Part shown: positions 2,287 through 61,288 of the stretch, piece after piece | Numbering within the stretch: position 1 is the stretch's first letter | How the letters are laid out: each line of letters starts with the position of its first letter | Virus record (IMG/VR): IMGVR_UViG_3300012663_000706 | DNA from: a virus | Lineage: Duplodnaviria; Heunggongvirae; Uroviricota; Caudoviricetes | Strand: one strand, 5' to 3' | DNA: 64,000 nt | The notes under the pieces: model-generated | What the model saw: the letters and a program-made list of their open reading frames with translations, nothing else | Databases searched by the model: none | What the model was told of the DNA's origin: nothing | Translations under genes and position numbers: made by a program

Positions 2287-4377
2287 TTATATTCCAAATC
2301 TATTTCGTAGAGCCCTGAAATTTTGTACTACTTCATCTTGACTCATTGTGATAAAATTAACTTGAACGTTTGCAATACTACCGTTAAATGATGCTCCTGT
2401 CCAAGAACGACCAATTACATCTATTGCATTTGACGAACTTAATTGAGCATCTACAGTAGAATCAAATACTCCATCCACATATAAATTCATATTACCATTT
2501 CCAATATTTGCCCAAGTCAATAGATGCCATTTACCATCGTTTACTGTTTTGAGTCCTTGTGATGTCTGCCATGAACCGTTATAATGAGTATATCCAATAT
2601 GACCATTATAAACTTGAAGGTTTGAATAAACTGGTCCACTGTTTGAATTAGAAAGAATTCCACCTTCATTAAGACCTGTTGCTGATGTAGTTGTTTTAAT
2701 CCAGGCGTTAACAGTCCAGTTAACATTCTGGTTTAAGCTAAATGAATTAGTTGATCCTTCGATAAAAATAGCATCATCAGAACCATCAAATGTCCAATGA
2801 CCACTATTTCCAGTACTATACCCAACTCCATTTGTAAGAGTTGCATATTTAGAACCAGCTAAATTATATGCAGTAACCGATCCAGGTTCATAAGAAACTA
2901 AATTACCAGCGTCCCACATGTAAGTTAAACCACTTGTAACAATGGGACCACCATAGTAATTCTGATAAATTTCTGCAGCAGTTAGTGCCTTATTATAAAT
3001 TCTTGCTGTTTCAATATTACCATCAAAGTTATGAGTTCCATCAACTACCGTACCGCCATAAGTTCCAACGTAATAAGTTGCATCGGGTATGGTTCCATTT
3101 TGAGCCCATGAGTCGATCTGAACACCATTAACATATGCTCTAGCAGTTGTACCATCGTAAGTACCGACCAAATGGGACCATCTATTATCTGGAACACTTC
3201 CATTCCAATTGTAAAGTCTAGATGCGTTTGTTTGATTAGCCCAGTGCATTGCATGTGTAGTGCCATCAACTGAATTAATAATACCAAGATACATTGAGTT
3301 GCTAGCTGAAATCGCTCCACCTCTAATTGTACCGGCAACCGTACCTTTTATTGGTTTAATTAAAGATTCGCATGTAATTGCGGTTGTTGGTTTATTACTA
3401 AAAGTATTTAATACTGCATAGTCATCAACTCCATCAAAAGAAAGACCTCTGTTTGAATCTACAGTAACTCCATTTATTAAAGTTGCAGGATTATTATTAT
3501 TTGATAAATCTCGCCATGTTGTGTTTTGCGATCTTGTGCCATTTACAAAAGGAGTTAGAGTACTGCCTGCCTCGATTTGGGGCATTGTTACTTCCCAACT
3601 ATGGTTATCTCCATTCCATGTACCACCCCAAGAGATTAAGTAAAAATATACATTACCAGGTGCAGTAACATTTACTGTTACAGAAACTCTTTGCCAAACT
3701 CCTACTAAACTTTTATTTACGGCTGATGCAGTGTCTCCTGCGCCATAATTACTTATATAAACTGCGCCTCCAGTAACTGGTGCTGCATCTCCTATGTATT
3801 TTATCCATGCTGAGAATGTGTATATTCCGGCAGCACCTAAGTCAAAGTTTTGATATACACCGTTCCAAGAACCTCTATTACTCATTCTGTATCCTGTCGT
3901 ACCAAATTCGGTAATAAATGTTCCATCATTTCCATTACTATACCAAGCCCAACCTCCATTAAAAGTAGCTGCATTAGTAACTTTATTAATGATTGGTTGG
4001 TTATTGTTAAAACTAGAAACATGCGAAGCGTCGAGATTTAAAACTAGGCCGCTTGGCACTATATTATCAATTGGTCTATTTAGGACCATGTGTGTTGATT
4101 GCGCTGCTGCCCAAGTTAATGCTCCACTAGCCCCAGTTACGTTAGCACCTAAGCTATTAACTTTACCAACTAACTCAGTATCGTTATTTGCAATAAAAAC
4201 CCCATTAGGACTATATACTGCATAACCTCCGGCTGGAATATTAGCTCCATGGTAAAAACTTGTTGCTGAACTTGGTCCACCGCCTGTATTTGCTGGAGTA
4301 TTGTTAATTGCCCAGTTTCCTTTAAAGATAGAGTCTGCTTCGGATCCAGTCTTATTATATTTGAATTTATTTGGCAT
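2287..4377 (-). CDS. tail fiber / receptor-binding protein paralog 2 (696 aa)
   Basis: The N-terminal module is conserved with paralogs 1 and 3 at both protein and nucleotide level. It carries the SFDGVDDYA LamG-like motif and a divergent C-terminus. Confidence 0.55.
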   Translation of the reverse strand: MPNKFKYNKTGSEADSIFKGNWAINNTPANTGGGPSSATSFYHGANIPAGGYAVYSPNGVFIANNDTELVGKVNSLGANVTGASGALTWAAAQSTHMVLNRPIDNIVPSGLVLNLDASHVSSFNNNQPIINKVTNAATFNGGWAWYSNGNDGTFITEFGTTGYRMSNRGSWNGVYQNFDLGAAGIYTFSAWIKYIGDAAPVTGGAVYISNYGAGDTASAVNKSLVGVWQRVSVTVNVTAPGNVYFYLISWGGTWNGDNHSWEVTMPQIEAGSTLTPFVNGTRSQNTTWRDLSNNNNPATLINGVTVDSNRGLSFDGVDDYAVLNTFSNKPTTAITCESLIKPIKGTVAGTIRGGAISASNSMYLGIINSVDGTTHAMHWANQTNASRLYNWNGSVPDNRWSHLVGTYDGTTARAYVNGVQIDSWAQNGTIPDATYYVGTYGGTVVDGTHNFDGNIETARIYNKALTAAEIYQNYYGGPIVTSGLTYMWDAGNLVSYEPGSVTAYNLAGSKYATLTNGVGYSTGNSGHWTFDGSDDAIFIEGSTNSFSLNQNVNWTVNAWIKTTTSATGLNEGGILSNSNSGPVYSNLQVYNGHIGYTHYNGSWQTSQGLKTVNDGKWHLLTWANIGNGNMNLYVDGVFDSTVDAQLSSSNAIDVIGRSWTGASFNGSIANVQVNFITMSQDEVVQNFRALRNRFGI

Positions 4378-11162: not shown

Positions 11163-11180
11163 TATATGTTTATTTATTAC

Positions 11181-11217
11181 TATACAAATATAAACAAAAT
11201 ATTTGACATAAAAAAAC
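11181..11217. promoter_or_regulatory. early-type motif copy (TATACAAATATAAACAAAATATTTGACATAAAAAAAC) in a divergent intergenic region
   Basis: Lies between the minus-strand 78-aa gene start at 11162 and the plus-strand micro-ORF start at 11288. It contains a TTGACA hexamer and may serve both directions. Confidence 0.35.
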
Positions 11218-11287
11218 TTTTAGTGATTTATTTTTCAATAAGTGAAAATAAATATTGAAACCAACAAAAAATAGTTAAACCAAGATT

Positions 11288-11473: not shown

Positions 11474-12280
11474 TTAATCTATTTTCGTTCCGCAGCTTGG
11501 ACAGAATTTCCAAGTTTGCTTCTTCATTCTAGTTCCACATCCAGAACAATAATTTCTAAGATCTGAAATTTCTGCTGGTTTATTAGATTCTGCTAGAATT
11601 TGCATGTATACAGTTTCACATGGATAATTTTCAAATTCCATAAATACTGATGAGAAATTCTGATTTGAACTAGAGCCTTTTTCAACTCTACCAGTTTCAT
11701 AATTTGCTTGAATTCCGCTAGGTCCCGAAGGTCCATTGCTTCCAATAGCACCAGTTGATGTTGAAGAATAAAATGCGGTGTTTGTGGTTGTTGAACCTCC
11801 TACAAAATTACTGCTAGACGTGATAGTTGTACCACAATAAGGCATAGGTGTAGGACTTGCAGTACCTGGAGTATTCCAGCTTCTCCAACTTGGATTTACG
11901 TTAACAACGTATCCTGAGTTTTGTACAACCTTTTCTCTGTAGTAAATTACTTTAACTGAACCGTTGTTTTTGATAGCATTTAAAACTTCTTTATCGGTAC
12001 CGTCAACTTCATAAGTTCTAAAAACAAATTTGTTGTTGGTGTCGATGTATCGTTCTAAGAATACTCTTTGTCCTGGTTTTAGGACTAATCCACTCTCTGA
12101 AATTATGGTGTCATTCATCCAGATTTTTGCAAGTACTGAGTACTCGTGTGAATTAAATAATTCGATTTGAAATTCATCACCGTCCTTTAAATATACGACT
12201 TCTGAATTTGCTGGGCTCTTGTAAGTTTTGAGCCTGCTGTTTTTTACGGCAATGTGAGCCGCCTTTGTTTTTGTTGTCAT
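11474..12280 (-). CDS. hypothetical protein with C-terminal zinc ribbon (268 aa)
   Basis: C-terminal CSGCGTRMKKQTWKFCPSCG (CxxC...CxxC). The central region is Ser/Thr/Gly-rich. Confidence 0.45.
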   Translation of the reverse strand: MTTKTKAAHIAVKNSRLKTYKSPANSEVVYLKDGDEFQIELFNSHEYSVLAKIWMNDTIISESGLVLKPGQRVFLERYIDTNNKFVFRTYEVDGTDKEVLNAIKNNGSVKVIYYREKVVQNSGYVVNVNPSWRSWNTPGTASPTPMPYCGTTITSSSNFVGGSTTTNTAFYSSTSTGAIGSNGPSGPSGIQANYETGRVEKGSSSNQNFSSVFMEFENYPCETVYMQILAESNKPAEISDLRNYCSGCGTRMKKQTWKFCPSCGTKID

Positions 12281-27707: not shown

Positions 27708-27723
27708 ATTTTTTATCTTTTAT

Positions 27724-27767
27724 TATATGTAAATATAAACAATTTTCTTGACATAAAAAAATATTTA
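27724..27767. repeat. 44-bp repeat TATATGTAAATATAAACAATTTTCTTGACATAAAAAAATATTTA, identical to the copy at 58487..58530
   Basis: Exact 44-bp identity between two distant intergenic regions. Related copies lie at 7671..7688 and 11181..11217. It contains TTGACA and lies upstream of minus-strand gene starts. Confidence 0.7.
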
Positions 27768-28729: not shown

Positions 28730-28802
28730 AGATTTATTTTTGACAATTTATTTCTATTGTTATATTCCAGAACTAAGTTTAGTTTCAAAAATAAATAGTT
28801 AT

Positions 28803-29312
28803 ATGTCATTTAGAAAAAAGTACCCTACGATTACCAGAACCGGTGGACCCTTTCCATCGAATAGGTATGGAATCATACTTAAGAATCTTTCGAGACTTCA
28901 AAGAAGATTCTTGGCCAATCATCCTATTATTAAGGACAGGGTACAAGATGACCAATTTACGGCGATTATTCTTGAGCTGACAAACTACTCGGTACAACCT
29001 TTCAAGTTCAAAGATCGTCTATATTACGACTGGTCAACGGGAAGCATCGTAGAGAAATCAGAACTTATAAACAATTACAACTCAATCCCTTGGGTTTGTT
29101 GCGTCAGCGGTAAGCCTATCACTTGCAGGACAGATGACTTCAGCTTAGAAAACTTTGTCCATCCAGAGTACCATGACATTTTAAAGGCTCCAATGGTCGA
29201 TAGCCGAATTCTTAAGTCGTCGGTTGAGTTCCGCAAATATGTAAAAAAGCTCTTGATGAATGAACAACAAGAGCTTTTAAGATTAGCTAAAAAGAATTCT
29301 AAAGTTAATTAA
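28803..29312 (+). CDS. hypothetical protein on the opposite strand (170 aa; the track ORF 28740..29312 starts earlier)
   Basis: A 190-codon open frame in an AT-rich genome with no competing minus-strand ORF. It is one of only two plausible plus-strand genes in the window. No motif was recognised. Confidence 0.45.
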   Translation: MSFRKKYPTITRTGGPFPSNRYGIILKNLSRLQRRFLANHPIIKDRVQDDQFTAIILELTNYSVQPFKFKDRLYYDWSTGSIVEKSELINNYNSIPWVCCVSGKPITCRTDDFSLENFVHPEYHDILKAPMVDSRILKSSVEFRKYVKKLLMNEQQELLRLAKKNSKVN

Positions 29313-53452: not shown

Positions 53453-54493
53453 TTAGAAAAGAGCATTTTGTTCAAAATTATTATTAAAGAAATATTCCAT
53501 TAGAGAATTATCAGCTCTTGCAACTTTTCTTCGATTAATTAGATGTGGGTTACTTCTTAGTCGGTAATAAACTCCGTACTGACAAAGTCCTACTTCGCAG
53601 CCGTATGTTTTTAAATCGTCTTGCTCGTCTTGAAAAATCTTCTTGCCATTTACTTCAACATTATGCGTTGATTCATGTAGAGGAATATCTCCAATTAGGT
53701 CTTTGTAGTTCTCTCTAAACCAAATTACTCGATCACCGTATGGAATTGTGCAATCTTCACCAAACATTAAGTCTAATGTAAATCTAGCTCCTGGTCCTGG
53801 TACACAGAATCTTTCGTCATGATTAACATTAATTCTTGGATTTACCGAATTGGACGTTGAGCAGTGATACCCGTAGTACTGTCCTACACCTTCTAGCGAG
53901 GACATAATTTCATACATCTCGCTTAAAGAATTAACCTGGGCCATCCTTCCAGTGATTCCTCTAGGTATAAATGACGCTACCCATAATAAAATATTAATTT
54001 TATGAGCATCTCGTTCCTGGTTTCTGGTTTGGGCAACATAAGTATTGGCTGCGCCGAATAAACTTGTACGTAATTCTGTACTTCCGTAGATCGGCAAACC
54101 TAAAGAAACTGCGTCTTCTAAATTCTTACGAATTTTATTTTCATATTCTCTATCAACTAAAAGTCTTTCGAAATCAACTAAAGCTGTTTTAGGATTTGGA
54201 TCTCTTGTTAGGATTTGGTGAATTCCACGAGCTCCGTAAAAGTGAGAAATAATCGTATTGCAGATAATATTGTCCATTGAGATTGGAGCATATACAATAT
54301 TCTCCATGATATATCTCATACGGTCATCTAGAGTAATTTGTGGGTGGAAGTATTCTACTGTTTCTCCTAACGCATCGTCTCCGTCGCTACTATAAGTATC
54401 TAGAACACCCATATTGTAGAGAGCTCTTTCATTAACTTTGTTAAAGAATCTACCGATATCTTTAACCACTTCCATATTTACTCTATCTCTCAT
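53453..54493 (-). CDS. hypothetical protein (346 aa)
   Basis: ORF only. Confidence 0.4.
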   Translation of the reverse strand: MRDRVNMEVVKDIGRFFNKVNERALYNMGVLDTYSSDGDDALGETVEYFHPQITLDDRMRYIMENIVYAPISMDNIICNTIISHFYGARGIHQILTRDPNPKTALVDFERLLVDREYENKIRKNLEDAVSLGLPIYGSTELRTSLFGAANTYVAQTRNQERDAHKINILLWVASFIPRGITGRMAQVNSLSEMYEIMSSLEGVGQYYGYHCSTSNSVNPRINVNHDERFCVPGPGARFTLDLMFGEDCTIPYGDRVIWFRENYKDLIGDIPLHESTHNVEVNGKKIFQDEQDDLKTYGCEVGLCQYGVYYRLRSNPHLINRRKVARADNSLMEYFFNNNFEQNALF

Positions 54494-55638: not shown

Positions 55639-56820
55639 TTAAGCTCCTTTAACCTGTTTAGCAGTAACCGTTGTTAGTTTGCGGTGAGCTAATGCTTCGC
55701 ATTCTTGAACAGCGTCTGTAAACATCATTTGTTGAGGAGGTGTTTTTTGTGTGAAAGCAGAAGGACCTCTTAAGGCTCCAACTATTCCCATTTCTCTTGC
55801 AACTCTTAAGTAACGAAGGGCATCGATTACAACTCCTGCGGAGTTTGGAGAATCTTGTACTGAAAGTTGAGCATCAAAGATTACTGGTGCTCCACCAAAT
55901 CCTTCAAGTTCTAAACGGAAGTTAGCAACTTTATTATCTCCATAATATGAGATATACTCAGAAGGACCAGCATGAAGGAATGAACCTTCGGTTGCAATTC
56001 CACGTATTTCGTTTTGAGCACGAATTACGTTTTCTTTAGAAATCTTTTTAGATTTCAAACGAGTTTTGTCTTCCATATTCAAGAAGTCAGTGTTACCACC
56101 AACATTACGTTGAATGTGTGCTTTTACAACATGTCCTCTTTCGAATGCAAGTTCTTGTAACATTTGAGACAAGATAGATGCACCAAATTGAGAACGCATA
56201 TCGTCACCAATTAATGGAATACCTGCGTCGATAAAACGTTTCTCCCATGCTGGATCAGATGCGATAAATACTGGAATACAGTTTACTAAAGAGATTCCAG
56301 TTTCTAGACAGATTTCAGCCCAAAATTCTGTAGCGTTTTGAGAACCTACTGGTAAGTAGTTAATCAATACTTCTACTTCATGTTCTTTTAATTGAGCAAT
56401 AACTCTGTCTTTCCAAAGACGAGACTTTTTATCAGTCCAGTCTGTGCGATTCATTTCTGATGAATTTCTCAATTCTTCAGAAACTAAGAAACGATTTGCT
56501 TCTGGATATGCATCCATTAACAATGCGTAACCATCAATTACTGGAGCTTCATAAACTGGAGCTTCTGATGTAATTGTTTCAACAATGTTCCATGCTGAAT
56601 TTGGTTTTTGCTTCAAAGCAACTCCTAGAGGTTGATTAACTTTACGTTCATCGATATCAAATGCGCAGACAAATTCAATGTCTTTTGCAGTGTAACCACC
56701 GATGTCGCTTCTCATCATACCGTCGATGTTTGCTTGGTTTTCAGTGTAGAATTGTACTCCTTCTACTAGAGACTTGGCGCAGTTTCCTGTTCCAATGATT
56801 GCAACTTTGATTTTACTCAT
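55639..56820 (-). CDS. myo-inositol-3-phosphate synthase (MIPS) family protein (393 aa)
   Basis: The N-terminal VAIIGTGNCAKSLVEGVQFY matches the NAD-binding start of bacterial Ino1 (VAIVGVGNCASSLVQGVEYY). The length is typical. Confidence 0.6.
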   Translation of the reverse strand: MSKIKVAIIGTGNCAKSLVEGVQFYTENQANIDGMMRSDIGGYTAKDIEFVCAFDIDERKVNQPLGVALKQKPNSAWNIVETITSEAPVYEAPVIDGYALLMDAYPEANRFLVSEELRNSSEMNRTDWTDKKSRLWKDRVIAQLKEHEVEVLINYLPVGSQNATEFWAEICLETGISLVNCIPVFIASDPAWEKRFIDAGIPLIGDDMRSQFGASILSQMLQELAFERGHVVKAHIQRNVGGNTDFLNMEDKTRLKSKKISKENVIRAQNEIRGIATEGSFLHAGPSEYISYYGDNKVANFRLELEGFGGAPVIFDAQLSVQDSPNSAGVVIDALRYLRVAREMGIVGALRGPSAFTQKTPPQQMMFTDAVQECEALAHRKLTTVTAKQVKGA

Positions 56821-59318: not shown

Positions 59319-59867
59319 TTATTTTGCGTCGATTGTTAAGAATACAGAACTTCTAATTTCAATATTGTTTCTACCAACTAGTTTATCGTAAGATCCTACA
59401 ACTTCGGTTTCTCTTCCAGTCATAAGAGCATCATTCATCATTCCATCTAGTTTTCTAGAGAATTTAGAACCATCAGCATCATCTGCAAAACCGATATTAA
59501 TTACGAAATCGCTAGGAATTCTAACTAATAATTCTGATTTTCCAGGTGCGTTGATACCTTCAACATCATCAACTACCCATAAAGTTTTACTTAGAGTAGC
59601 AGTGATATAAACAACTGCTTCTTTGTCCTTAACTTGCTTCATTACCTCTTGTTCGATAATTTTAGCTCCGTCTTTATCGGCCCATTTTGTCCAAACGTCA
59701 TTAAGTTCTTCTAGTGTTGCGTCAGAATCTCCTTCGTATTTAACTCGTTCTACCTCTTTCTTAAAGGCAAATGCTACTTTTCCTATAATACCTTTGGCTC
59801 CGTAGATTCCAGTTAACTGGTACGCCTTTTCATTTATAAATTGTTCGAATAATTGTACGTGTTTCAT
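59319..59867 (-). CDS. hypothetical protein (182 aa from the MKHV start; the track's GTG extension to 59921 is rejected)
   Basis: The ATG lies 7 nt downstream of the stop of the cysteine-rich micro-ORF. Confidence 0.4.
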   Translation of the reverse strand: MKHVQLFEQFINEKAYQLTGIYGAKGIIGKVAFAFKKEVERVKYEGDSDATLEELNDVWTKWADKDGAKIIEQEVMKQVKDKEAVVYITATLSKTLWVVDDVEGINAPGKSELLVRIPSDFVINIGFADDADGSKFSRKLDGMMNDALMTGRETEVVGSYDKLVGRNNIEIRSSVFLTIDAK

Positions 59868-59874
59868 GATTATT

Positions 59875-59949
59875 TTATTTTTTATTACAATCGCAGCACG
59901 CGCAATCACAAGATTGTCCACAATTACATATAGTGCAGTTACATTTCAT
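59875..59949 (-). CDS. cysteine-rich micro-protein, 24 aa (MKCNCTICNCGQSCDCACCDCNKK), metallothionein-like with CxC motifs
   Basis: ATG to TAA with 9 Cys among 24 codons, in CNC, CNC, CDC and CCDC arrangements. It sits 19 nt after the upstream gene stop and 7 nt before the next ATG. Confidence 0.5.
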   Translation of the reverse strand: MKCNCTICNCGQSCDCACCDCNKK

Positions 59950-59968
59950 ATTGGTTTGGTTTTATTTA

Positions 59969-61288
59969 CTACCAAGCGTAGTTTAAGTTGTCAACTTTCT
60001 TCAAGTAATCTTGAATATTTTTAGCGCGCTGTCTCATGCTACCTTCGTAGTAAGAACCACCGTAACCTGCTGCAACTTCTTTTTCTTGATTAACTGCATC
60101 TCCAACGTATCTAGAGTATTCGTCTAAGATATTTCTCATTAGGTTTGCAGCATCGTTCATTTTAACTTCTCTTCCTTTTGGATCTAGACCAACAATAAGT
60201 TCATCATATCTTCCTTTTAAGCCTTTAGCGATACCATCTTTGATTTGATCAGCGATAGTTTCGATTGCTTTTGATACAAGAGAATCTAATGGTAATTCAG
60301 CTGCTTTAGTAGCTAGAATATCATTATATCTTCTAATGTTTTCTGCTTTAAAATCTTTATCGCTTTGGAATGCAGTTGCTCCTCTTTTAGCATCAGATCT
60401 TTGTGACTGTAACTCGCTTGTAGAATATCTTGCTCTAAGAATATCTAAGTCTAAGCAATAAGCTCTATCAGCAAGTTCAACAACTTGTTTTAGACTTGAG
60501 ATTTTAGAACCATAACTTGAGTTTGCAGAAGATTTTGCAACTCCTGCTGAATCATCTCTTTTAGTTACTTTTAAAGTTCTAGCTCCGCGTCTTTGCCATT
60601 CAGCATTCATCCATTCGTTTTGACCATTAGTAATTGCTAATAGTGTATTTGCTAGGATTGTTCTAGTCGACCAATCGCTTGCAGAATATGGATTCTCTTT
60701 TTCATTTGTCGTGAAATAGAAATATACAGCATTAGCTCTTTTTTCTTTTTTAGCAGTTTCTGGATCCATTTCGATAATATCGACATCTTGGATTTTATCT
60801 AGTGCTAATTTTGACATTTGGTAAAATGCTTTTGGAAGATCCTTTGGCATTTTTTCAGCACCAACTAAAAGACCTGCAAGTTTTGAAGATGCAAATGCTT
60901 CATTTAATTTATTATTCTCGATAAATTCTGAGAATGATTCTACTAATCTATTCATTTCAAATGATTTTTTATTTTGAGTTTTATTTTCTTTCTTTAATTG
61001 AGAATAAATTTTTAATCCAGCTTTAGATAGAGTAATTCCATCTTCAGATAGGTTAAAATAATGGTTGTTTCTTTTTAACCATCTTTTCTGGTCTTCAGAA
61101 ACCTTTGTAAGAATCAAATTAAATTCTTCTTTGGTTAATTTACCATCTTTGATAGCTTCGATAACTTTATTCCTGGTAGTAGCATGAGTTGATGCTAATT
61201 TAGCAGGATGAAGTTCTGTATATTTTCTCTTTAGAGTAATTGCAGCTTCATTAAGATTCGATTCGTTAATAAATTCGTTAAAATCCAT
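59969..61288 (-). CDS. hypothetical protein (439 aa)
   Basis: ORF. A late-type CGATATATAGA motif lies about 25 nt upstream. Confidence 0.4.
   Translation of the reverse strand: MDFNEFINESNLNEAAITLKRKYTELHPAKLASTHATTRNKVIEAIKDGKLTKEEFNLILTKVSEDQKRWLKRNNHYFNLSEDGITLSKAGLKIYSQLKKENKTQNKKSFEMNRLVESFSEFIENNKLNEAFASSKLAGLLVGAEKMPKDLPKAFYQMSKLALDKIQDVDIIEMDPETAKKEKRANAVYFYFTTNEKENPYSASDWSTRTILANTLLAITNGQNEWMNAEWQRRGARTLKVTKRDDSAGVAKSSANSSYGSKISSLKQVVELADRAYCLDLDILRARYSTSELQSQRSDAKRGATAFQSDKDFKAENIRRYNDILATKAAELPLDSLVSKAIETIADQIKDGIAKGLKGRYDELIVGLDPKGREVKMNDAANLMRNILDEYSRYVGDAVNQEKEVAAGYGGSYYEGSMRQRAKNIQDYLKKVDNLNYAW

Follow-up and report, generated by a model that had tools for sequence, protein, structure and literature searches.

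Metallothioneins typically contain 20–30% Cys or more, and the described members closest to the peptide considered here span several architectures. The β-domain of animal metallothioneins has around 30 residues and forms one half of a two-domain protein of around 60 residues. The Neurospora crassa copper metallothionein is a free-standing single domain of 25 residues with seven Cys that binds six Cu(I) ions, while wheat Ec-1 (type 4) is a longer, multi-site protein that uses His as well as Cys. Bacterial metallothioneins of the SmtA/BmtA type have around 50–56 residues, a zinc-finger-like fold and His ligands. Marine Synechococcus carries bacterial metallothionein genes (PMC9337993). Nine Cys is the ligand count both of the M3S9 β-cluster and of gastropod three-metal domains, and the binding of three divalent metal ions by nine Cys is documented (PMC11500472). 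Here we compare these systems with a micro-gene on the minus strand of a 64-kb stretch of IMG/VR virus record IMGVR_UViG_3300012663_000706 (the window; all positions follow the numbering of the whole stretch). The window is a stretch of the genome of a large marine contractile-tailed phage, and the micro-gene (Table 1) encodes the 24-residue peptide MKCNCTICNCGQSCDCACCDCNKK. Judged by its pattern of sequence variation, the micro-gene is a real gene under purifying selection on the peptide, and we put a probability of roughly 0.55 on its product being a minimal single-domain metallothionein-like microprotein encoded by an accessory phage gene.

The micro-gene and its locus

The peptide has Cys at residues 3, 5, 8, 10, 14, 16, 18, 19 and 21, making up 37.5% of its length in CxC, CxxC and CC motifs. 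The first-pass annotation of this DNA had reported an open reading frame (ORF) from ATG to TAA with nine Cys in 24 residues and a CxC-type arrangement, without stating the strand, and the ORF is confirmed on the minus strand. Its description of an A-rich leader within an AT-rich genome, with spacings of 19 nt from the upstream stop and 7 nt to the following start, is exact in both distances and agrees with a GC content of 32–37%. The leader is of the same type as those of the phage's other genes: a Shine–Dalgarno (SD)-like core precedes one of 54 window genes and the leaders are 53% A, so that the A-rich, SD-less leader is typical for this genome. No promoter-like or terminator-like site was found on the coding strand between the micro-ORF and its neighbours.

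When the window was simulated 300 times with a second-order Markov model, the peak number of Cys per stop-free 24-residue segment in six frames was 5–8 and never nine; a peak of eight was reached twice, and among ATG-initiated ORFs of 15–40 residues the peak, also eight, was reached once. The Cys share of the phage's long ORFs is 0.65%, against that of the micro-ORF more than a third. A chance ORF, or a DNA-level repeat without coding function, might be argued from the antisense frames of AT-rich phage genes, which reach 6–8 Cys per 22–24 codons. However, in a cultured Flavobacterium phage used as a negative control such Cys-dense chance frames are antisense, rich in Phe, Tyr and Trp and devoid of ATG/stop framing, and variation among 81 non-redundant copies of the family described below, as among orthologues at the locus itself, is structured by codon. 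The micro-ORF is far beyond chance expectation, as the first-pass annotation had proposed from its density of TGY codons, and the chance-ORF explanation is effectively refuted.

The product of the upstream 439-residue gene gives one weak DUF4168 match, under the Pfam curated cut-off, and no PHROG match. Its homologues, at 37–92% identity, were fetched from 40 IMG/VR loci, and a Cys-rich ORF downstream of the homologue was found in none of the 40. In eight loci with the same downstream gene, the alignment shows a clean gap of around 83 nt precisely at the micro-ORF and its spacer, and the downstream gene opens with the same ATG, which immediately follows the upstream stop; the micro-ORF is wholly missing. 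The boundary of the gap is ambiguous by around 6 nt because both junctions read ATGAAA. Given this clean gap, a GTG-extended 200-residue version of the downstream gene that would overlap the micro-gene is not real, and it was also rejected for the lack of conservation of its extension in relatives. The case that the first-pass annotation itself had named as fatal, an alternative frame of a genuine N-terminal extension of the downstream gene, is excluded by the same eight relatives. By the same gap, the micro-gene is a recent insertion of around 83 nt in the window's lineage.

The absence of the ORF from all 40 loci first suggested a lineage-specific artefact, a view overturned by the wider family and by orthologues from metagenomes. 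A metagenome scan yielded three contigs with an ORF at the same place, encoding MKCNCTICNCGQSCDCTCCDCNKK (L242, L243 and L254; Table 1) and differing from the window ORF at 6–7 of 75 nt. The differences are synonymous third-position TGT/TGC or AAT/AAC changes, with the sole exception of codon 18 (Ala to Thr), a position that varies across the wider family too. The leader differs more, at 5–6 of around 25 nt. This pattern shows purifying selection on the peptide at the locus. Conservation of frame and Cys positions in related phages, the check that the first-pass annotation had called for, is thereby seen in these three contigs as well as in at least 94 homologues elsewhere, and we infer that the product is translated in infected cells.

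A micro-gene family essentially restricted to viruses

Back-translating the first nine residues of the core gave a pattern that matched an unrelated viral contig (L041) encoding MKDPCNCTICNCGETCGCDCCDC, in which all nine Cys are kept with several TGT/TGC switches relative to the window. The looser pattern CNCxxCxCGxxCxC, scanned over IMG/VR, matched at least 120 viral contigs, and at least 94 of the matches are stand-alone ORFs of 20–23 codons; figures from the family scans are lower bounds, the true prevalence being higher or equal. All 94 stand-alone ORFs continue with xCCxC and 93 of them stop right after the last Cys, both the ending and the stop lying outside the search pattern. Far from the singleton as which it had first been handled, the ORF is thus a member of a large, virus-restricted family of at least 95 copies, the window copy included, in which 79 different gene sequences encode 70 distinct peptides.

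The family pattern is M(K)CNCxxCxCGxSCxCxCCxC-stop, 20–23 residues long, with the 21-residue consensus MKCNCKVCNCGTSCDCTCCNC. Among the distinct peptides, 16 have 20 residues, 39 have 21, 11 have 22, three have 23 and one has 24, and the NKK tail of the window peptide is specific to the window lineage. The spacing C-x-C-xx-C-x-C-xxx-C-x-C-x-CC-x-C is invariant in the 95 copies, and nine Cys and one Gly are invariant in the 81 non-redundant copies. Asn after the first Cys is only nearly invariant, as it was fixed by the search pattern and pattern-independent finds have Asp there too. The remaining positions vary among K/Q/T/E, E/I/V/T, D/E/G/N and T/S/D/N. Entropies of 0.46, 0.40 and 1.02 at codon positions 1, 2 and 3 in the non-redundant set mean that third positions vary around twice as much as first and second positions. 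Each Cys codon mixes TGT and TGC across the family, and for the conserved Ser 52 copies use TCN codons while 21 or more use AGY.

A second, divergent micro-ORF family of 29 residues, MCNNEHCNCENCTCGSSCKCTAENQCGCE, occurs in L061, L071, L077, L085, L124, L127, L132 and L140. It has the same CNCxxCxCGxSCxC core and exactly nine Cys plus one His, with a different spacing at the end, and a good ribosome-binding site, AGGAG, lies ahead of it. Its exact sequence is absent from a collection of 15 billion proteins.

Searches for described relatives of the nine-Cys family were negative throughout. Four family peptides gave no match in Pfam and NCBIfam at E≤10, family peptides gave none in PHROGs at E≤0.01, and phmmer of the consensus against the PDB found no match. 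Exact look-up of 10 family peptides in the 15-billion-protein collection, including versions extended to alternative starts, found none; the exact window peptide is absent from it, and nothing in it shares three 5-residue words with a tandem 45-mer made by joining two members. No match came from blastn of 40 concatenated family genes against 50,697 deposited phage genomes, nor from tblastn of the consensus against deposited phages, though low-complexity filtering leaves the latter search uninformative. Rfam gave no match to the window locus and five carrier loci. No cultured carrier was found among deposited phages. Among cultured phages the carrier block is most closely related to Flavobacterium phage immuto (160 kb), and a scan of that whole genome revealed no family member. 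The full nine-Cys pattern has one match in 185,579 prokaryotic genomes (596 Gb), on a 549-bp contig of a metagenome-assembled genome, and the family is therefore essentially virus-restricted. In the literature searched, neither a phage or viral metallothionein nor the family motif is reported, though the family may appear, without being remarked on, in published catalogues of small genes from phages. Family genes are 63–75 nt long. Prodigal, the commonest gene caller, has a minimum gene length of 90 nt, and the family has likely gone unseen because its genes are shorter than the minimum of gene callers.

Comparison with metallothioneins

The family shares the sequence features by which metallothioneins are operationally recognised: low mass (20–24 residues), a very high Cys content, absent aromatics with scarce His, and conserved CxC, CxxC and CC motifs. 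Overall it is 45% Cys, and the 1,404 residues of the 70 distinct peptides include no Phe, Trp or Tyr and a single His, the filler being Asn, Lys, Ser, Gly, Thr and Asp. Of the options offered by the first-pass annotation, the metallothionein-like one therefore stands in every feature of sequence. High metal content in metal–thiolate clusters, which also belongs to the operational definition, is a candidate property.

One comparison is with the animal β-domain. That of fish metallothionein (1M0J) resembles the phage peptide in its nine Cys ligands, its CxC-rich layout, its lack of aromatics and its filler of Lys, Ser, Thr, Asn and Gly. In the core motif the two are nearly identical: the consensus CNCGTSCDCTCCNC agrees with the fish chain CNCGGSCTCTNCSC at 10 of 15 positions, and hhalign gives a probability of 93%, both being single low-complexity comparisons. 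The two differ in that the phage peptide is free-standing with 20–24 residues rather than half of a larger protein, and in N-terminal spacing, which is CxCxxCxC in the phage family and CxCx5CxC in the vertebrate β-domain. The vertebrate domain is moreover eukaryotic and the phage peptide viral, without significant database-wide homology between them, and convergence is therefore as likely as descent.

The Neurospora protein is more alike in form, being free-standing, single-domain and of similar size. Its sequence was verified against PDB 1T2Y, in the same search that surfaced the fish chain, and 7 of 13 positions are identical to the consensus at the Neurospora stretch CNCGSGCSC, which corresponds to phage CNCGTSCDC. 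The phage core CNCGxSCxC is common to fish and Neurospora metallothioneins and, together with the composition, points to a minimal metal–thiolate cluster peptide. In contrast to the fungal protein and its seven Cys, the phage family has nine, is shorter and more Cys-dense, and ends in CCxC. Wheat Ec-1 (PDB 2KAK) is picked up by the family profile through CGCGxxCxCxxCxC-like stretches and is longer, the 2KAK chain alone having 53 residues. SmtA/BmtA and mycobacterial MymT are small, prokaryote-associated, Cys-rich proteins that bind metal. No Pfam or NCBIfam model matches the phage peptides, and prokaryotic genomes are essentially devoid of the phage family.

A metallothionein-like model for the micro-gene product can be outlined. 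A cytoplasmic peptide of 24 residues without a hydrophobic core would fold only around metal ions, and its nine invariant Cys thiolates would build a single metal–thiolate cluster. The likeliest form is M(II)3Cys9 with Zn or Cd, as in the animal β-domain, with a Cu(I) cluster like that of the 25-residue Neurospora protein as the alternative. The peptide would then buffer or sequester soft metal ions in the infected cell, which may shield phage replication from Cu or Cd, or keep Zn for phage needs. Its gene behaves as a free-standing "moron" with no fixed partner, occupying variable slots between genes or at operon ends and scattered among unrelated marine phages. Metal binding, stoichiometry, the identity of the bound metal and the physiological role are all proposals drawn from the peptide sequence.

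Several observations weigh against this model. Pfam metallothionein models do not match, and in a search of the family profile against 177,635 PDB sequences only wheat Ec-1 metallothionein appeared, at a non-significant E=5. E-values of the pairwise comparisons (1M0J, 1T2Y and hhalign) are valid for single comparisons only, and the similarity to metallothioneins may be that of a low-complexity Cys motif reached by convergence. We know of no metallothionein domain as short and Cys-dense as nine Cys in 20 residues, and an M3Cys9 cluster within 20 residues may be sterically strained. No metal-related gene was found to be consistently linked to the micro-ORF among family loci, and any benefit of the micro-gene to the phage is speculative. 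Finally, a specific binding surface, and not the geometry of a cluster, could be what keeps Asn nearly invariant, Gly invariant and Ser conserved.

This last point leads to a different possibility, that of a zinc-stabilised "knuckle" microprotein that binds and modulates a specific host or phage macromolecule as a regulatory or host-takeover factor, the metal being purely structural rather than buffered in bulk. As non-ligand residues that are invariant or nearly so, Asn4, Gly11 and Ser13 may form a recognition surface, and a sporadic, moron-like distribution would suit an optional host-interaction factor, phage accessory regions being rich in very small host-modulating proteins. We regard this as unlikely. 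Zinc ribbons and knuckles hold one Zn between two CxxC-type ligand pairs. With nine Cys in 19 residues the phage peptide has around twice their ligand density, too much for a ribbon hairpin to fit in, and the remaining positions are highly variable, offering little constant surface. Carriers differ widely in gene content and in GC content (27–44%), which makes a single conserved target less likely. No Pfam zinc-ribbon or knuckle model matches at E≤10; a zinc-ribbon model does match another window protein (11474..12280, 268 residues) weakly, at 25.2 bits against a 25-bit cut-off, a result that does not extend to the sensitivity of such models for a 24-mer. The zinc-knuckle regulator suggested by the first-pass annotation is kept, as a zinc-dependent regulator or binder, as a less likely rival to the metallothionein-like microprotein.

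Genomic neighbourhood

Carrier loci have a median GC content of 31%, and carrier contigs reach around 160 kb. In 44 of the 95 family loci, a total that counts the window copy, the ORF lies 110–130 nt upstream of the gene for a protein of around 430–520 residues (cluster 0), the N-terminus of which matches the flavin adenine dinucleotide (FAD)-binding Pyr_redox_2 family. This recurrent neighbour speaks for a redox-active or Fe–S microprotein, in which the Cys residues would ligate an Fe–S centre or undergo thiol/disulfide cycling, for example in scavenging reactive oxygen species or as partner or substrate of a disulfide reductase of the flavoprotein type. Against it, a conserved hairpin and a strong intrinsic terminator occupy the gap between the two genes. 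Among 73 independently fetched cluster-0 loci, only five carry the micro-ORF and 66 are without any Cys-rich ORF upstream, while most of the 73 keep the hairpin, and no cluster-0 homologue was found in the window. On this evidence the FAD-type neighbour was rejected as a functional partner or maturase, and its link with the micro-ORF is positional, not functional. Nine is also an odd number for disulfide pairing, and the Cys spacing of the family is unlike the ferredoxin motif CxxCxxCxxxC. A redox or Fe–S role is consequently judged improbable.

Upstream genes belong to at least 12 unrelated clusters, and the largest of these, a small cupin-like protein with no significant Pfam match, was rejected as a constant partner as it is found at only 13 of 82 loci. 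What lies downstream likewise varies from one context to another, and many contexts have gaps of 2–12 nt. At 13 loci the upstream gene overlaps or abuts the ATG of the micro-ORF (−14 to +1 nt), an arrangement that fits translational coupling. Some carriers, L049 and L064 among them, are related to the window's phage (their clamp loaders are around 60% identical), and in these the micro-ORF is found at a different place, adjoining a homologue of the window's only plausible plus-strand gene (Table 1). The micro-gene has no constant neighbour gene, and with such varied upstream and downstream contexts it therefore behaves as a mobile, optional cargo gene.

The same contexts bear on whether the ORF encodes the precursor (core peptide) of a ribosomally synthesised and post-translationally modified peptide (RiPP), as the first-pass annotation had also considered. 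Short Cys-rich ORFs are typical of RiPP cores and an oxidoreductase is often nearby, and precursors of the SCIFF/ranthipeptide type are likewise very short ribosomal peptides with many Cys. Those precursors carry a leader at the N-terminus and are encoded next to a radical-SAM maturase, whereas both a RiPP-type leader and an adjacent maturase are absent at the phage loci examined. The conserved core sets in 0–4 residues behind Met, and in 93 of 95 copies the stop follows it directly, leaving neither leader nor follower. Conserved neighbours are lacking on both sides. A search of around 5 kb about the window ORF detected no enzyme of the radical-SAM, YcaO or lanthipeptide type, in keeping with the earlier remark that no maturase gene is obvious nearby, and none was detectable in the window as a whole. 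The only CxxxCxxC protein in the 64-kb window has no Pfam domain, radical-SAM included, and lies 35 kb away. A RiPP precursor is disfavoured, and we hold it to be highly improbable.

A run of codons for one residue in a tiny ORF just upstream of a gene is also the classic layout of a leader peptide that senses Cys-tRNA charging and exerts control by attenuation or translational coupling, the peptide itself having no function. In the commonest context a terminator does lie 3′ of the ORF. However, hairpin and terminator are present there irrespective of the micro-ORF, downstream genes vary by context, and the window spacer is only 7 nt with no terminator-like site. Selection extends to Asn, Gly and Ser (with its TCN/AGY switch), to exact length and spacing and to the position of the stop, none of which an attenuator needs. 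The chance that the ORF is such a leader peptide appears very slight.

The cluster-0 loci have features of their own. A conserved stem-loop is found around 100 nt upstream of the cluster-0 gene in L041 (7393..7503, minus strand), L044, L048, L076, L255 and around 80 other loci, and not in the window. It consists of a lead-in (A)CATAYAG, a 5-bp covarying stem with at least 15 variants and an invariant 9-nt loop, ATTCATAGC, and 79 of 89 distinct instances are fully paired. Around 25 nt after it comes the strong, GC-rich intrinsic terminator, followed by CGTATATT. The stem-loop is kept with or without the micro-ORF and has no Rfam match. In L192 and L205 the same variable slot, around 100–115 nt upstream of the cluster-0 gene, holds another small ORF, MKKFICNLINIITFKQVCFKWCCSNCKCK, which is hydrophobic at the N-terminus and rich in Cys at the C-terminus. 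The cluster-0 protein itself (for example L041 5986..7392, minus strand) occurs in at least 600 IMG/VR contigs, and its nearest counterparts in deposited phages, from Campylobacter phages and human-gut contigs, have only 25–29% identity. It marks an abundant marine phage group without a cultured representative in the collection searched.

Other features of the window

Nearly all window genes lie on the minus strand. They encode a tail sheath, large terminase, portal, major head protein and prohead protease, together with a DnaB-type helicase, SbcC-like nuclease, DNA polymerase, ribonucleotide reductase and clamp loader. DNA and protein searches with the flanking region of the micro-gene found no match in deposited phages, and the clamp loader has at most 61% identity to that of an uncultured 462-kb phage; the window phage is without a close cultured relative.

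Among other features (Table 1), the PF18723 match suggests that the phage may hypermodify thymidine in its DNA, and the myo-inositol-1-phosphate synthase is an unusual auxiliary metabolic gene. The repeated 45-nt intergenic element is probably a phage promoter. From their common N-terminus, the adjacent 613- and 696-residue ORFs would be tandem paralogues, the larger of which matches a virion structural protein family. Many otherwise unrelated genes start with the motif MK(H/Y)(I/V)(K/Q)L(F/Y)E(Q/E)F(V/I)NE, as in the window at 59867 and 34699 (MKNLKTFEQF) and just downstream of the 439-residue homologue in L006, L007, L014–L021, L023, L028, L030 and L038. Its recurrence could stem from an N-terminal module common to these genes or from recombination being concentrated at the starts of genes, and the ATGAAA on both sides of the micro-ORF insertion may be compared with it.

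Table 1. Coordinates of the micro-gene, its surroundings and other window features, with contigs carrying an orthologue at the same place.
Feature	Position	Strand	Remarks
Micro-gene	59875..59949	minus	ATG, 23 sense codons, TAA; product MKCNCTICNCGQSCDCACCDCNKK
Leader	59950..59968	minus	19 nt, A-rich, SD-less; stop of 439-residue gene to micro-gene ATG
Spacer	59868..59874	minus	7 nt; micro-gene TAA to ATG of 182-residue gene
Insertion segment	59868..59949	minus	around 82–83 nt, micro-gene plus spacer; absent in eight otherwise collinear relatives
Upstream 439-residue gene	59969..61288	minus	function unknown; used to fetch syntenic loci L001–L040
Downstream 182-residue gene	59319..59867	minus	starts MKHVQLFEQFINEK...; true start ATG at 59867 (MKHVQLFEQF)
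Only plausible plus-strand gene	28740..29312	plus	homologue directly follows micro-ORF in L049, L064, L125 and others
45-nt element TAAATATTTTTTTATGTCAAGAAAATTGTTTATATTTACATATAA	58486..58530, 27723..27767, 11178..11222	minus	intergenic; two identical, third with 10 mismatches
5-hmdU DNA kinase helical domain protein	53453..54493	minus	PF18723, E=2e-13
Myo-inositol-1-phosphate synthase	55639..56820	minus	53% identity to Stenotrophomonas phages (IME-SM1 group)
Adjacent ORFs, 613 and 696 residues	424..2265, 2287..4377	minus	both start MPNKFKYNKTGSEA
Orthologue contig L242			3,083 nt; 91.2% identity to window; titled marine metagenome
Orthologue contig L243			5,560 nt; 93.9% identity to window
Orthologue contig L254			6,565 nt; 94.3% identity to window

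Significance

Metallothionein-like peptides are already known as a kind. What is new is the family itself, which has no model and no database entry, along with its virus restriction, the mobile behaviour of the micro-gene and a peptide shorter and more Cys-dense than the 25-residue Neurospora metallothionein. It constitutes a widespread, strongly selected protein family that is invisible to current annotation. More tentatively, and with doubt slightly outweighing confidence, these peptides may be the first virus-encoded and the smallest metallothioneins, in which 20 residues hold nine thiolates in one cluster, common in uncultured marine phages and hidden by the 90-nt floor of gene calling.

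Provided that the peptides bind metal, the range of metallothioneins would come to include viruses and the lower size limit of a metal–thiolate cluster domain would move down; this would interest bioinorganic chemists, and the peptides may serve as a minimal metal-binding tag. Presence/absence polymorphism between genomes 91–94% identical is a natural experiment on the fitness effect of the gene, and the question of whether marine phages manipulate host trace-metal homeostasis would become testable. Should the metallothionein-like model be true, infected cells would be under phage-controlled Zn, Cd or Cu speciation, and viruses would act directly on marine trace-metal physiology.

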